From: Chloroflexota bacterium
GTDB lineage: Bacteria; Chloroflexota; Anaerolineae; Anaerolineales; Villigracilaceae
Length of the DNA stretch: 64,000 nucleotides
Direction of reading: 5' to 3'
Assembly: GCA_013152325.1 (NCBI GenBank)
Contig: JAADGN010000045.1
Span: 18,310-82,309, forward strand
Of the stretch, positions 36,083 through 39,807 are shown one piece after another (positions within the stretch are counted from its first letter, which is position 1; every line of letters begins with the position of its first letter). The position numbers and the translations under genes were made by a program. Under the pieces are notes generated by a model. The model saw only the letters and a program-made list of their open reading frames with translations. It was not told the DNA's origin and made no database searches.

Positions 36083-36850
36083 ATGATCGAACAGTTTCTC
36101 GCCAAGAATTACAGCGGTGCGCCCTTCCAAATCTTCGGCGGCACACACCTGGCTGCCTTGGTTGTAGTCGTGCTGCTGAATCTGTACCTGTTGGGATACC
36201 GCAAAAAAGGCGAGCCCGCCCGACGCCGCATCCGCCTCGTCATGGCGGCCATTCTCGTCCTGAATGAAATCGGCTGGCACATCTGGAACTACACCACCGG
36301 CCAGTGGAATATCCAGACCATGCTGCCCCTGCACCTGTGCAGCGCCCTTGTCTGGCTGGGCGCGCTGATGCTGGTCACCAAGAGCCAATTCATCTACGAC
36401 TTCGCCTACCTACTGGGCATCGCCGGCGCGCTGCAAGCGCTGTTGACGCCCGATCTGGGCATCTACGGATATCCCCACTATCGTTTCTTCCAAACCTTCA
36501 TCTCGCACGGGCTGATCGTCACATCAGCGATCTACATGACGGTTGTCGAAGAGTTTCGCCCCACGTGGAGGTCGCTTTTGCGCGTGCTGGTTTGGGGCAA
36601 CATTTACATGGCCGCCGTTTTCGGGATCAACCAACTCATCGGCAGCAACTATCTCTACATCGCCCACAAACCGGAGACAGCCAGCCTGCTCGACGTGCTC
36701 CCGCCCTGGCCCTGGTACATCCTGTGGATCGAGGCGATTGGCATCGTCAGCACGTTGCTGCTCTACTCCCCCTTCGCCATCAAAGACTGGCGCGATAAGC
36801 GCAGAATGAAACGGGCGGGTGCGTCACGTCTTGACGAAATTCTTTCTTAA
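36083..36850 (+). CDS. YwaF/TIGR02206-like membrane protein
   Basis: 255 aa. The LPLHLCSALVWL motif and overall pattern are as I recall for the YwaF family. Confidence 0.65.
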   Translation: MIEQFLAKNYSGAPFQIFGGTHLAALVVVVLLNLYLLGYRKKGEPARRRIRLVMAAILVLNEIGWHIWNYTTGQWNIQTMLPLHLCSALVWLGALMLVTKSQFIYDFAYLLGIAGALQALLTPDLGIYGYPHYRFFQTFISHGLIVTSAIYMTVVEEFRPTWRSLLRVLVWGNIYMAAVFGINQLIGSNYLYIAHKPETASLLDVLPPWPWYILWIEAIGIVSTLLLYSPFAIKDWRDKRRMKRAGASRLDEILS

Positions 36851-36858
36851 GGTAGAAT
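36831..36858 (+). promoter_or_regulatory. promoter of the intron-containing tRNA-Leu gene
   Basis: TTGACG-16-TAGAAT, ending 16 nt before tRNA position 1. It has the same GGTAGAATTAC context as the promoter at 40129. Confidence 0.6.
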
Positions 36859-36909
36859 TACCTCCGCATCGCATGGGGCGATGGCGGAATTGGCAGACGC
36901 AGCGGACTT

Positions 36910-37612
36910 TAACAATTTGAGCGCCAGGACAGGAAACTTCCTGCGTGGATTCAGTCAAATTCGGGGAACCCTCAGCGCGTAATGGCGGTGGCAATCCCGA
37001 GCCAAGTTTTTTGCTGTTGACTTTTTGTCGCGTTCTACGGAATTTGTAAATGCCAAGAAAAAGAAAGTATTCCGACGAACAACTCATCAACGCGGTACAG
37101 AATAGTCAATCAATACGCTCTGTGTTGCAAAAGATTGGGTTAACTCCGGCTGGAGGAAATTACGAATCGATCAAAAAACGCATCCACGAATTAGGGATCG
37201 ATACGTCTCATTTTCTCGGTCAGGCTATTCTAAAAGGCAAAACTCACACATACGGCACTCGCCCGCTAGAAGACATCTTGGTCCACAAGAAACTAGAAAA
37301 TACGTGGAGATTGAAAAAGAGACTTCTTGTAGAACACATCAAAGAGCACCGTTGTGAGAAATGCCGAGGAACAGAATGGCAAGGAGAACCAATCCCCCTC
37401 GAACTCCATCACAAAGACGGAGATCGAACCAACAACACACTGCAAAATATTGAACTCTTGTGTCCTAATTGTCACGCACTCACAGACAATTATAGAGGCG
37501 GCAAAAAAAAGGTGTAGAGACTTGACGGCTGAGACCTAAGGCAGACACCTATGGTCAAGAGAAAGTCCAGACTACAAACTTCTCATAAGGTAGCGAAAGC
37601 TATAGTGGTAAG
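36910..37612 (+). mobile_element. group I intron (cyanobacterial/plastid tRNA-Leu intron type) carrying a homing-endonuclease ORF
   Basis: The 5' exon ends in U and the intron ends in G. Core blocks match the Anabaena tRNA-Leu intron as I remember it: TTGAGC...GTGGAT...GGGGAACC...GGCAATCCCGAGCCAAG, then after the ORF AGAGACTTGACGG...GTAGCGAAAGCT. Confidence 0.75.
37050..37517 (+). CDS. HNH homing endonuclease encoded inside the group I intron
   Basis: 155 aa. HNH core is CEKCRGTEW...ELHHKDGDRTNNTLQNIELLCPNCH. AT-richer codon usage than flanking genes. The stop overlaps the intron 3' core. Confidence 0.8.
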   Translation: MPRKRKYSDEQLINAVQNSQSIRSVLQKIGLTPAGGNYESIKKRIHELGIDTSHFLGQAILKGKTHTYGTRPLEDILVHKKLENTWRLKKRLLVEHIKEHRCEKCRGTEWQGEPIPLELHHKDGDRTNNTLQNIELLCPNCHALTDNYRGGKKKV

Positions 37613-37665
37613 AAAATCCGCCGGTGGCAACACCTTGTGGGTTCGATCCCCACTCGCCCTACCAA

Positions 37666-37700
37666 AAACCCCGCTCCAAATGGAGCGGGGTTTCATTTTT
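37666..37700 (+). terminator. rho-independent terminator after tRNA-Leu
   Basis: AAACCCCGCTCC / GGAGCGGGGTTT stem, AAAT loop, then CATTTTTG. Confidence 0.8.
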
Positions 37701-37706
37701 GCACCG

Positions 37707-38465
37707 CTAATGTACTTCGCCGACCACTTCCCCTTCGCGTCTGTCCTCCCAAGGGTAGGCTTCGAACTCCTTCGCCGCCGCGCGGATGGCGGGGTCGTCA
37801 GAGTACACGCCACGCTTCTCCTGCGGCAGCAGCTCTGCAACCCGGCGCATGATCTCGTGGCCGATCTCATCCAACTGACGGCGGCGCTCACGTCCGCGCC
37901 CGGTCACGCTGAAGGGACCGAACGGTTTCCCAATCCGAAAAGCGATCTTCGCCCGCTTGCCAAGGCGCAGCGGGAAGATATCGTTCAAGCCAACCAGGCC
38001 GACGGGCAGCAAGCGCGCGCCCGTCCGTGCAGCCAGATAGGCCGTGCCAGGGCGCGCCGGACGCAACACCTCGGCCCAACTGCCCCCCTCGGGGAAGATT
38101 CCCAACTTCCCTCCGCGTACGAGCACCTTTTCCGCCGCCTTCAACGCGCCACGCGAGCCTGTCCCGCGATAGAGCGGATAATAGCCCCACAGGGCAGGGA
38201 TGAACTTGACAGCGCCCGGCGCATGGGGCATGTCCGCCCCGCCGACAAACTCCAGCGGCCAGGAAAAAAGCCGCACGAAAGCCACCGGGTCGGCAAAGCT
38301 GAAGTGGTTGCCCACGACCAGGAGCGGCTCCGCTTTCGGGATATTCCCCTGCCCGACGATCTCCAAATCCGCCAGCAAGCCAAAAGCCGCAATGGAAAGT
38401 TTATGCAAAATGGAGCGCAGCACGCGCCGACGGGGGTATTTGAAATCCACGCTGTGAGCAGACAT
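37707..38465 (-). CDS. lysophospholipid (1-acyl-glycerol-3-phosphate) acyltransferase family protein
   Basis: The ATG at 38465 gives MSAHSV... NHFSFAD (HX4D) and FPEGG motifs are present. Confidence 0.8.
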   Translation of the reverse strand: MSAHSVDFKYPRRRVLRSILHKLSIAAFGLLADLEIVGQGNIPKAEPLLVVGNHFSFADPVAFVRLFSWPLEFVGGADMPHAPGAVKFIPALWGYYPLYRGTGSRGALKAAEKVLVRGGKLGIFPEGGSWAEVLRPARPGTAYLAARTGARLLPVGLVGLNDIFPLRLGKRAKIAFRIGKPFGPFSVTGRGRERRRQLDEIGHEIMRRVAELLPQEKRGVYSDDPAIRAAAKEFEAYPWEDRREGEVVGEVH

Positions 38466-38472
38466 GGTTGGT

Positions 38473-39807
38473 TTACGCCCGACTTGCACCAAGTTCCGCG
38501 GCGTACTCTTGTGCGGTCCGCTTTGCGCGCTGTTCGTCAACGGACAGCAGAAGCCCCAGCCCCACAAACAGGAACACCAGGATGGACGCAATGGCTATGC
38601 GCTGCCCCGTCTGTTCAGCCAGCAAAGTCGTCATGCCCCGCCGTTCGAACCAGAAAGCCGCCGAGGCCGCCAGCAGGCCATAGATGGTGGGGCCAATGAA
38701 CGAAGATGTACGCCCGGCCACGGAAAAGAAACCAAAAAATTCGGCGCTTTGCCCGGCAGGGGCAAACATGCCGACCATCGTCCGGCTGACAGACTGGACG
38801 CCGGTCAGCGCAAATCCGGCCAGCGCTCCAATCAGGAAAAAGCCATTCAGGGTTTGGTTAAAGAGCATCCACGTTACCGCACCGGCCATCAACAAGATGG
38901 CCGACACCAACGACCGCTTGTAGCCAATCCGGTCGCCGAGCACGGCAAAGGCGTAGGCTCCCGCCACACTGGTCACCTGAACGATGATCATGAAGATGAT
39001 CAACTGCGTCTGATCCATGCCATACAACACCGCGCCGATAATGGCAGCAAAATCAAGGGCCATGAGAATGCCGTCGTTATAAATCAGGAACGCGACGATA
39101 AACTTGATGAACTCCCGAAAGCGGCGAACCGCCTTGAGGGTCCGGGCGAGACGCTTGAAGCCGATGGTCAGATAATTTTCACCGACAGGGAGTTCCTGAG
39201 AGCGGGCGCGTTCCTTGATCCAGAAAAAGGTCGGAATGGCCGCCGCAGCGAAGAACAGGGCCGTGAACGGCAGGGAAAGCCGTACGGGGAGCGTCGTTCC
39301 CTTGATAAGCACGATGGGCGGCAGGATGATGAGCAGGGCCAGGATCCCGCCCAACGATCCGATCGCCCATCCTTTCCCGGAGACACGCCCCATCTCTTCG
39401 GGAGAAGCGATCTCCGGAAGCAGCGAGTTATAGAAAACCTGCCCGGCGCGATAGCCAATTTCTGCCAAAATGAAGAACAGCATCCCGATGAAAATATCCC
39501 CTTTCCGGACGAAGAAAAGCAGCGCCGTGAACACCCACGTAACAGATGAGAACAGGAAAAGGAATTTCTTTTTCGAGGCCGAGAAATCGGCAATTGACCC
39601 AAGGATGGGAGAGATGACCGCCACGACCAACATGGCGATGCCGACGGAGATGCCCCACAGCCGGGAGCCCTCTGCGCCGCCAACGACCTCGCCTTTAAAA
39701 TAAGCCGAGTAGATGGCGAGCAACACGACCGCCGCGTAAGCCGAGTTCCCAAAATCGTACAGATACCAGGCGCGGTGTTCGCGGTTAGCTGGTTTTTTCT
39801 TTGCCAT
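38473..39807 (-). CDS. MFS transporter (UMF1/Atg22-like)
   Basis: 444 aa with about 12 helices. The N-terminal WYLYDFGNSAY motif is typical of the UMF1 family. Confidence 0.8.
   Translation of the reverse strand: MAKKKPANREHRAWYLYDFGNSAYAAVVLLAIYSAYFKGEVVGGAEGSRLWGISVGIAMLVVAVISPILGSIADFSASKKKFLFLFSSVTWVFTALLFFVRKGDIFIGMLFFILAEIGYRAGQVFYNSLLPEIASPEEMGRVSGKGWAIGSLGGILALLIILPPIVLIKGTTLPVRLSLPFTALFFAAAAIPTFFWIKERARSQELPVGENYLTIGFKRLARTLKAVRRFREFIKFIVAFLIYNDGILMALDFAAIIGAVLYGMDQTQLIIFMIIVQVTSVAGAYAFAVLGDRIGYKRSLVSAILLMAGAVTWMLFNQTLNGFFLIGALAGFALTGVQSVSRTMVGMFAPAGQSAEFFGFFSVAGRTSSFIGPTIYGLLAASAAFWFERRGMTTLLAEQTGQRIAIASILVFLFVGLGLLLSVDEQRAKRTAQEYAAELGASRA

Follow-up and report, generated by a model that had tools for sequence, protein, structure and literature searches.

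The window analysed here, by which we mean the whole 64,000-nucleotide (nt) stretch from a Chloroflexota bacterium (assembly GCA_013152325.1, contig JAADGN010000045.1, positions 18,310 to 82,309), contains a tRNA-Leu(UAA) gene that is split in its anticodon loop by a 703-nt group I intron carrying an open reading frame (ORF) for an HNH endonuclease. Judged from its sequence, the element is real and almost certainly functional. The host is an Anaerolineales bacterium, and we consider it highly probable that its own single-copy tRNA-Leu(UAA) gene houses a working and mobile group I intron of the Leu.3Ug type, which splices, is propagated by HNH-mediated homing and arrived recently by horizontal transfer. 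The parts of the locus, all on the plus strand, are the following.

36831-36858, plus strand: putative sigma-70-like promoter TTGACG-16-TAGAAT, its role predicted from a consensus scan (10/12 matches), ending about 16 nt 5' of the tRNA
36875-36909, plus strand: tRNA-Leu(UAA) exon 1, with the acceptor 5' strand, D arm, anticodon-stem 5' strand and C32 U33 U34 (ARAGORN, spliced and native)
36910-37612, plus strand: group I intron, 703 nt, type Leu.3Ug, with U-1 at 36909 and omega-G at 37612
37050-37517, plus strand: HNH ORF, 155 amino acids (aa), in the P6 loop (L6), with a TAG stop at 37515-37517 and an in-frame TAA directly 5' of the ATG
37613-37664, plus strand: tRNA-Leu(UAA) exon 2, with A35 A36, the anticodon-stem 3' strand, long variable arm, T arm, acceptor 3' strand and encoded CCA (ARAGORN, spliced and native)
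37666-37693, plus strand: intrinsic terminator, made up of a 12-bp stem (8 GC pairs) and a T run after it

When the segments 36875-36909 and 37613-37664 were joined, ARAGORN returned an 87-nt class II tRNA-Leu(UAA) with a long variable arm and an encoded CCA. On the native locus ARAGORN with intron search reported tRNA-Leu(taa) interrupted after position 35 by an intron of 703 nt (output i(36,703)), and without intron search no tRNA was detected at the locus. The insertion is located between the anticodon-loop nucleotides U34 and A35, with the junction sequence …GGACUU/UAAC…GGUAAG/AAAAUCC, as read from the window …GCAGCGGACUU/UAACAAUUUGAGC … AUAGUGGUAAG/AAAAUCCGCC…. An earlier reading of the same DNA made from the letters alone (the sequence-only reading) had placed the exons, the intron and the split at U34/A35 at exactly these coordinates, and had pointed to the U before the 5' splice site and the terminal G of the intron, which are present at 36909 and 37612. 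It had further described the 155-aa HNH-type ORF at 37050-37517 as lying in a peripheral loop with its stop codon running into the core, and the loop and helix in question can now be named as L6 and P7.

The insert is a real group I ribozyme core, judging from three lines of sequence evidence taken together: an Rfam match of the 5' half, Rfam-positive ORF-less homologues and strong covariation. When the 5' half alone (36895-37012) was searched with Infernal, it matched positions 1-108 of RF00028 (Intron_gpI) with 32.5 bits and E 3.1e-7, a 3'-truncated match that spans P1 to the P6 5' strand. A metagenome scan using the HNH alignment yielded introns without an ORF (266-375 nt) as well as mini-introns about 197 nt long, which are inserted at the same tRNA-Leu(UAA) site and align base for base with the core of the window intron. 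ORF-less homologues at this site scored 62.1, 59.3, 58.6, 57.6, 50.7 and 50.3 bits on RF00028, against a gathering score of 50.

For the covariation analysis, 42 distinct pre-tRNAs were aligned with the P6 loop trimmed, and a P1-P9 structure was drawn on the window sequence, where every proposed pair is canonical. Across the homologues 92.2% of the cells were paired, compared to 30-48% when the partners were slid by 1-3 columns, and compensatory (two-sided) changes were found at 40/64 proposed pairs. The covariation score was 0.292 versus 0.04-0.09 for the slid versions, and none of 500 shuffles attained the observed pairing or covariation values. The ORF-trimmed intron folded better than all of 200 shuffled sequences (z = -2.9) and its minimum free energy (MFE) fold recovered P2, P4, P5, P6, P8 and P9b. 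The same intron architecture was found at more than 35 independent loci. The helices, again on the plus strand, are listed below in the order in which they occur.

36907-36921, plus strand: P1, exon C32-U33-U34 (36907-36909) with the internal guide GAG (36919-36921) and a U.G wobble at the splice site
36925-36943, plus strand: P2 hairpin with a GAAA loop, 6/7 pairs with compensatory changes, present in the MFE fold
36950-36956, plus strand: P3 5' strand, partner 37527-37533, 5/6 pairs covarying and 97.6% of cells paired
36961-37000, plus strand: P4 (36961-36966 with 36995-37000) around P5 (36970-36991)
37001-37016, plus strand: P6 5' strand, GC at 37001-37002 and TTTTTTGCTG at 37007-37016, with 10/10 pairs of distal P6 covarying
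37499-37513, plus strand: P6 3' strand, formed by the final sense codons of the ORF (…GKKKV)
37517-37522, plus strand: P7 5' strand, G-A-GACU with a bulged A, partner 37564-37568, 5/5 pairs invariant in 42/42
37527-37533, plus strand: P3 3' strand, pairing with 36950-36956
37534-37555, plus strand: P8 hairpin, proximal three pairs 100% paired, recovered in the MFE fold of the window intron
37564-37568, plus strand: P7 3' strand, AGUCC
37571-37612, plus strand: P9 domain, with P9.0 (37571-37575 with 37605-37609), P9a (37579-37589), the P9b GAAA hairpin (37591-37602) and omega-G at 37612

The P1 exon pairs CG, UA and UG were invariant in 42/42 homologues, the Rfam alignment of the 5' half puts P1 at the same place, and P1 is extended by pairing of 36911-36912 with 36916-36917. 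P4 was paired in 97.6% and P5 in 88.8% of the cells (4/5 P5 pairs covarying), and the three helices of the P9 domain (P9.0, P9a and P9b, helices 11-13) were 91-100% paired with 3/5, 3/3 and 3/4 pairs covarying, respectively. Distal P8, which lies in a poorly aligned region, was paired in 46% across homologues and was counted as an alignment problem. P7 forms a pseudoknot and is outside the Rfam model. The sequence-only reading had named three core blocks as similar to the Anabaena intron, and these correspond to J5/4-P4'-P6 (GGCAATCCCGAGCCAAG), to P7 with the beginning of P3' (AGAGACTTGACGG) and to the GAAA hairpin of P9b (GTAGCGAAAGCT). In the 42 homologues the J5/4 and P7 blocks are near-invariant and agree with the Rfam consensus, and the stem of P9b covaries. 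The core thus folds, contrary to what that reading had named as a finding that would speak against a group I intron.

The HNH ORF is not simply placed within the P6 loop, as its final codons also form one strand of the helix. The P6 5' strand at 37007-37016 (UUUUUUGCUG) pairs with 37499-37508 (CGGCAAAAAA), inside the end codons GGC AAA AAA AAG GTG, which encode G-K-K-K-V. The distal P6 strands are TTTTTTGC/GCAAAAAA in the window, CTTCTTGC/GCAAGAAG in most copies and CTTCTTCC/GGAAGAAG in the homologue L093; over the longer stretch, most relatives have CUUCUUGC/GCAAGAAG, coding for S-K-K-K-V, and L093 has CUUCUUCC/GGAAGAAG. These paired variants mean that synonymous or conservative codon changes are offset by compensating changes 500 nt upstream, and the near-invariant C-terminus NYRGSKKKV thus reflects RNA-level as well as protein-level constraint. 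P7 begins with the final base of the TAG stop (37517). The stop codon was considered as an adaptation to the ORF and this was rejected, given that the same UAG triplet is present in the mini-introns and in introns with an antisense ORF; the sense ORF thus runs into a pre-existing ribozyme triplet.

Two further observations concern the ORF. Public gene calls for the HNH homologues P0002, P0006 and P0070 add about 35 N-terminal residues (MNSVKFGEPSA…GGNPEPSF…), and this extension is the P3-P5 ribozyme core read in frame, an annotation artefact. On the minus strand a promoter-like TCTACA-18-TATAAT (37489-37518, 10/12 matches) overlies the end of the ORF and P7 and may be due to chance.

The 155-aa product was accepted as an HNH nuclease. 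It has the motif C102xxC105, H120-H121, N133 and C138-P-N-C141-H142, with residues that were invariant or nearly so in 30 homologues, and it matched phrog_10822 ('HNH endonuclease') in PHROGs over its full length with E 1.6e-48, followed by seven further HNH phrogs. The AlphaFold2 model (predicted local distance difference test score 80.8, predicted template modelling score 0.50) has an N-terminal three-helix region, a disordered linker at 58-69 and a C-terminal strand-strand-helix unit at 118-143, in which strands 118-121 and 134-137 are followed by helix 139-143. In a Foldseek search against the Protein Data Bank (PDB) the top matches were the HNH nucleases EcoKMcrA, ScoMcrA, Cap5, Gme HNH, Hpy99I and PacI together with small helix-turn-helix DNA-binding domains, none of them significant. 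A PDB sequence search with the HNH profile gave chance-level matches only and no relative of solved structure was found. A weak match to the ZorE HNH domain was the only NCBIfam result and was judged not meaningful. The ratio of nonsynonymous to synonymous substitutions (dN/dS) was 0.06 and 0.09 against two relatives for which dS was unsaturated, and by this measure the ORF is under strong purifying selection. In total 3769 homologues were found, the best of which were named Anaerolineaceae or Chloroflexi, and the genomic context of the family suggests a role in homing.

The flanking acyltransferase has its closest named relatives in metagenome-assembled genomes (MAGs) labelled 'Anaerolineales bacterium' or 'Anaerolineae bacterium', and the closest named hosts of the HNH protein are Anaerolineaceae, Chloroflexi and Anaerolineales MAGs; the host is thus Anaerolineales and, as the sequence-only reading had it, not cyanobacterial. 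To compare alleles, 15 genomes of the same genus were used. A complete uninterrupted tRNA-Leu(UAA) was present in 12 of them, which answers a check proposed in that reading. One copy cut by a contig end (L007) is still readable across the splice site and is likewise uninterrupted, and one copy cut inside exon 2 was left unscored; one genome matched exon 1 only and two gave no match, all three being 82-86% complete. Where the same-genus flanks are present, the acyltransferase was found in 9 loci (70-79% amino-acid identity) and TMEM164 in 3. Given these shared flanking genes, the window holds the resident tRNA gene plus an insert and not an imported tRNA gene.

The intron is patchily distributed. 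The whole intron with its ORF recurs, 72% identical, in a single genome from a different genus (G022), and an intron with an antisense ORF was found in G027 of the same order. The HNH gene was present in 2/121 genomes of the family, with a single copy in the window's own genome, and the P7 motif in 11/401 genomes sampled across the phylum. A contig scan with the single HNH protein, using exact peptide patterns, gave two loci only. The arrangement seen in the window was also present on a 1.96-Mb Anaerolineales contig. The GC content of the intron is 44.7% and that of the genome 59.3%. The first pair of the anticodon stem (27-43) is G-C in the window, as in many intron-bearing alleles, and A-U in all 12 same-genus intron-less alleles; the G27-C43 pair is compatible with co-conversion during homing. 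Taken together, the syntenic intron-less alleles, the rarity of the HNH gene, the contrast in GC content and the 27-43 pair point to a horizontal and recent gain of the intron.

In an alternative reading the intron would splice and leave a functional tRNA with an HNH protein that no longer drives homing, being a fixed passenger awaiting decay or having another role such as maturase-like help in folding. Decay of the ORF does occur in the family, as ORF-less introns retain in-frame HNH remnants of differing lengths: L136 and L139 keep …LLCPNCHSLTDNYRGSKKK, L133 starts at DGDRTNN, and L135 has kept both the start MRRRRYTNQQLEEAVKTSH and the C-terminus, remnants which by their sequences are independent internal deletions. 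The window ORF, however, is intact with all motif residues present and has the low dN/dS values of 0.06-0.09, even though it is without a clear ribosome-binding site and an intron-less target was not found in the same genome. Its rarity (2/121 genomes) fits recent arrival better than long residence, and we know of no maturase-type HNH protein. A non-homing HNH is therefore improbable and we keep to a homing role.

The whole-genome ARAGORN search gave a set of 44 tRNA genes, in which the leucine anticodons are CAG, CAA, GAG and UAG in addition to the split UAA gene; a second tRNA-Leu(UAA), which the sequence-only reading had named as a possible counter-finding, was not found in the 92%-complete assembly (2.95 Mb in 154 contigs, the window being part of a 95-kb contig). 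UUA codons are in use, with 978 in 977 long ORFs (1.7% of leucine codons). According to the wobble rules UUA is decoded only by the UAA anticodon and cannot be read by tRNA-Leu(CAA). Given that the UAA gene is the only one and that UUA is in use, the split gene should need splicing, barring a copy in the unassembled 8%. That such a copy, or some other means, reads UUA and that the insert in a dead tRNA gene goes unspliced is very unlikely: the assembly is indeed incomplete and UUA is rare, but the exons form a perfect tRNA, the catalytic-core pairs are all intact in the window and conserved with covariation, neither the promoter nor the terminator is disrupted, the architecture is retained at more than 35 independent loci, and the wobble rules exclude tRNA-Leu(CAA). 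Least likely of all is a misjoining of phage-derived intron reads into the chromosomal tRNA gene during assembly, for while the MAG is in 154 contigs, the intron GC content differs from that of the genome and related elements are found on phage contigs, each exon runs on into syntenic chromosomal flanks within a 95-kb contig, many independent assemblies show the same arrangement (among them G022 and the 1.96-Mb Anaerolineales contig), and the nearest HNH relatives are Chloroflexota intronic copies and not phage ones.

Two side results came from the same tRNA search. ARAGORN with intron search made 17 'intron' calls in the whole genome, and all except the present one duplicated normal tRNAs or were without a group I signal and were rejected as false positives. 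No tRNA-Tyr(GTA), tRNA-Thr(GGT), tRNA-Thr(TGT) or tRNA-Gly(CCC) was found by ARAGORN in the window's genome (G000). In relatives the Thr-Tyr-Thr tRNAs form one cluster in which the Tyr gene is often intron-split, and this cluster may be unassembled or missed in G000.

Several results weigh against a functional and mobile intron. The intron was not reported when Rfam was run on the window at gathering scores; the whole native intron gave 16.7 bits on RF00028 (mis-registered, in E-value mode) where the gathering score is 50, and its 3' half alone gave no Rfam match. The three Pfam models closest to the protein were all below their cut-offs (HNH_3 21.6 versus 24.8, HNH 16.5 versus 21.4 and HNH_2 15.5 versus 21), and the Foldseek search gave no significant PDB match (best E 0.08), although its top matches were HNH nucleases. 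A clear Shine-Dalgarno sequence was not found for the ORF, the co-conversion argument concerns one base pair only, and with 92% completeness a second tRNA-Leu(UAA) could lie in the unassembled 8%. The low RF00028 score of the native intron comes from the 504-nt insert in L6, by which the core is split into two distant halves, and the 3' half is dominated by the P7/P3 pseudoknot that is absent from the Rfam model. We read the sub-threshold score as a limitation of the tool and not as failed membership, and we retain the interpretation of a functional mobile intron in a resident tRNA gene.

In the mechanism that we propose, where we infer splicing, the specificity of cleavage and both the vector and the direction of transfer, transcription of the tRNA gene would start at its own promoter and stop at its own terminator, and the ribozyme would fold about the large, ORF-bearing P6 loop. 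A guanosine would attack 3' of U34, held in the U.G wobble pair of P1, after which omega-G (37612) would occupy the same site and exon ligation would yield the tRNA for UUA codons. The 155-aa HNH protein would be translated from the precursor or the excised intron and would cut intron-less tRNA-Leu(UAA) genes near the anticodon, and repair from the intron-bearing copy would then insert the intron (homing). The HNH lineage would be specialised on tRNA-Leu(UAA); it also occurs as a free-standing gene beside that tRNA gene in phage tRNA arrays, from which it would have moved into the P6 loop.

To place the window copy within its family, 116 full-length HNH relatives were classified by genomic context. 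ARAGORN parses such as 'Tyr(ata)' and 'Phe(aaa)' were read as mis-registered tRNA-Leu(UAA). The arrangements were as follows.

HNH within a split tRNA gene (tRNA-Leu(UAA), or this gene mis-parsed by ARAGORN), sense strand: 40 copies
HNH inside such an intron, antisense strand: 9 copies
Free-standing HNH at most 200 nt from an uninterrupted tRNA-Leu(UAA), often in tRNA arrays: 45 copies
Free-standing HNH beside a tRNA-Leu(UAA) that holds an ORF-less intron of about 197 nt: 14 copies
HNH with its context cut off: 8 copies

Thus 49 of the 116 relatives were within a split tRNA gene, nearly all of them tRNA-Leu(UAA), and 59 were directly beside tRNA-Leu(UAA). Among the best 80 phage-contig loci, 63 had a tRNA-Leu(UAA) within 1.5 kb, and the phage-borne introns were 75-79% identical to the 3' core of the window intron. 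The ORF-bearing intron is common in Chloroflexota metagenomes and phage contigs and not a rarity. In a quick maximum-likelihood tree of the HNH proteins the window copy fell in a 31-sequence clade (Shimodaira-Hasegawa-like approximate likelihood ratio test 89), in which all copies with a resolved context are sense-intronic and all named ones are Chloroflexota. This clade is nested among phage free-standing and intronic copies, and the antisense intronic copies L006, L112 and L113 group with copies beside mini-introns. On this tree a minimum of 33 changes is required to account for the context labels, and as its root is arbitrary the direction of change is not readable from it.

The free-standing genes beside a tRNA-Leu(UAA) with an ORF-less mini-intron of about 197 nt (L114, L121, L122, the viral L160, L169, L199, L201, L204 and L215, and others) represent the 'collaborative homing' arrangement; their mini-introns have a minimal P6 hairpin and scored 57.6-62.1 bits on RF00028. 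The introns with an antisense ORF (L110-L113, and L006 in G027) have a Shine-Dalgarno sequence and start codon on the reverse strand in or beside the P6 3' strand (…CATAAATCCTCCTAA…). Being antisense, an ORF of this kind is not expressible from the pre-tRNA and requires an antisense promoter of its own.

A broader reading of these arrangements, which we put forward tentatively and at somewhat under an even chance, is that the HNH lineage is a homing endonuclease dedicated to the tRNA-Leu(UAA) anticodon region that shuttles between phage tRNA arrays and bacterial chromosomes and has entered the P6 loop of Leu.3Ug introns in two or more independent events, one giving the sense and one the antisense orientation. 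If so, public data would hold each stage in the birth and death of a composite mobile intron, from a free-standing gene beside an intron-less target, through a gene beside an ORF-less mini-intron and an intronic gene, to deletion remnants. The supposedly 'ancient, immobile' tRNA-Leu intron would then be a currently mobile element with phages as its vector.

Matches to RF00028 were found in 28/151 genomes of the class, and group I introns were present in many other tRNA genes of the class and phylum. These included tRNA-Asn (L029, L030, L033, L034), tRNA-Tyr (L039, L044, L045, L063), tRNA-Thr (L035, L043), tRNA-Met (L042, L046, L071) and tRNA-Leu-CAA (L048, L070), and several of the introns have other endonuclease genes. 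The ORFs in tRNA-Met and tRNA-Tyr introns matched Pfam PDDEXK_5, which we take to be the I-Ssp6803I family, with E 2e-51 and 6e-25, and those in tRNA-Asn and tRNA-Leu(CAA) introns encode small CxxC…HH…CQNCH proteins for which Pfam gave no call. In the Chloroflexota genome G203 the Tyr, Leu-CAA and Met tRNA genes (L063, L070, L071) are all split by introns of 605-657 nt, which share the GGTGTAGAGACT P7 motif of the window intron and each have a different endonuclease gene.

Downstream of the tRNA gene, the acyltransferase is encoded on the minus strand (37707-38591), where its longest ORF is 294 aa with a TTG start. This is about 42 residues longer than homologues of 250-252 aa and than the recorded gene product, and the true start is probably further downstream than the TTG.

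For annotation, the locus is one that standard tRNA and intron finders miss, so that the genome seems to be without a tRNA-Leu(UAA) and the HNH gene is listed as an isolated hypothetical one, in some cases with a spurious N-terminal extension from the ribozyme core. As to intron evolution, the tRNA-Leu(UAA) intron serves in textbooks as the model of a bacterial intron that is old, without an ORF and mostly inherited vertically, and the patchy, endonuclease-bearing version in Chloroflexota with its close phage relatives would present the same ribozyme as an active mobile element. The free-standing, mini-intron-associated, sense-intronic, antisense-intronic and remnant forms constitute a natural series for testing how such introns originate and decay, and the 155-aa protein is a compact endonuclease with a defined and highly conserved target. 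The locus alone is ordinary for a specialist and the family-wide series of arrangements is more interesting.

The cyanobacterial tRNA-Leu(UAA) intron is about 250 nt long and ORF-less. In cyanobacteria and plastids an intron at this position is the classical case (Kuhsel et al. 1990, cited by the review PMC3984707). The window intron resembles it in the host gene, the insertion point CUU/…g/AAAA, the U.G wobble at U-1, the terminal omega-G, the three-base exon part of P1, the helix order P1-P9 and the J5/4-P4' and P7 blocks. Unlike the cyanobacterial intron, known here by description, it is 703 nt long with a 155-aa HNH gene in L6, its Anaerolineales host is non-photosynthetic, its distribution is patchy and its gain apparently recent. 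The type Leu.3Ug is marked IC3 in the intron database, from which the window intron is assigned to subgroup IC3 by the literature, and tRNA-Leu(UAA) introns outside cyanobacteria are described in the same source (Williams 2020, bioRxiv 10.1101/2020.01.27.920355), whose text is without the terms endonuclease, homing and Chloroflexi. Beggiatoa and Thiomargarita also have tRNA-Leu-TAA introns (PMC4853749). These and the proteobacterial Leu.3Cg introns (Williams 2020) share with the window intron the gene, the group I class and a non-cyanobacterial host, but they are about 350 nt long and no endonuclease is described for them. A full-text search of the literature did not find a description of an HNH gene in a tRNA-Leu intron. 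The emphasis of the sequence-only reading needs two corrections: a tRNA-Leu(UAA) intron outside cyanobacteria is already known, and the ORF-bearing form is common in Chloroflexota metagenomes and phage contigs. The HNH cargo is the part without a description in the literature searched.

Similar in organisation is the group I intron in tRNA-fMet of Synechocystis PCC 6803, which encodes I-Ssp6803I (Bonocora & Shub 2001, as cited in PMC3984707). It is likewise a bacterial intron in a tRNA anticodon loop with a homing endonuclease directed against the anticodon region of the intron-less gene, but the tRNA and the insertion position are different and the enzyme has a PD-(D/E)XK fold in place of HNH; its PDDEXK_5 homologues were found in tRNA-Met and tRNA-Tyr introns of related Chloroflexota and not at this locus. 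HNH intron endonucleases of phages include I-HmuI, I-TevIII and I-PfoP3I (PMC3428280), and all phage introns known by 2014 were in protein genes (PMC3984707). In 'collaborative homing', or invasion by endonuclease genes (Zeng/Bonocora/Shub, reviewed in PMC3984707), a precursor route to composite mobile introns has been proposed, in which an ORF-less intron and a free-standing endonuclease come to share one site before the gene enters the intron (Hausner et al., PMC3984707). The present family resembles the phage HNH systems in that the HNH gene lies in a peripheral loop and has free-standing relatives beside the same target, some of them next to an ORF-less intron, and the window element differs in that its target is a tRNA gene and its host a bacterial chromosome, whereas those systems are in protein-coding genes of phages. 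Goddard and Burt are said to have described in 1999 a cycle of gain, decay and loss of homing elements. The picture obtained here for the family matches both this gain-decay-loss cycle and the pathway of Hausner et al. (PMC3984707).

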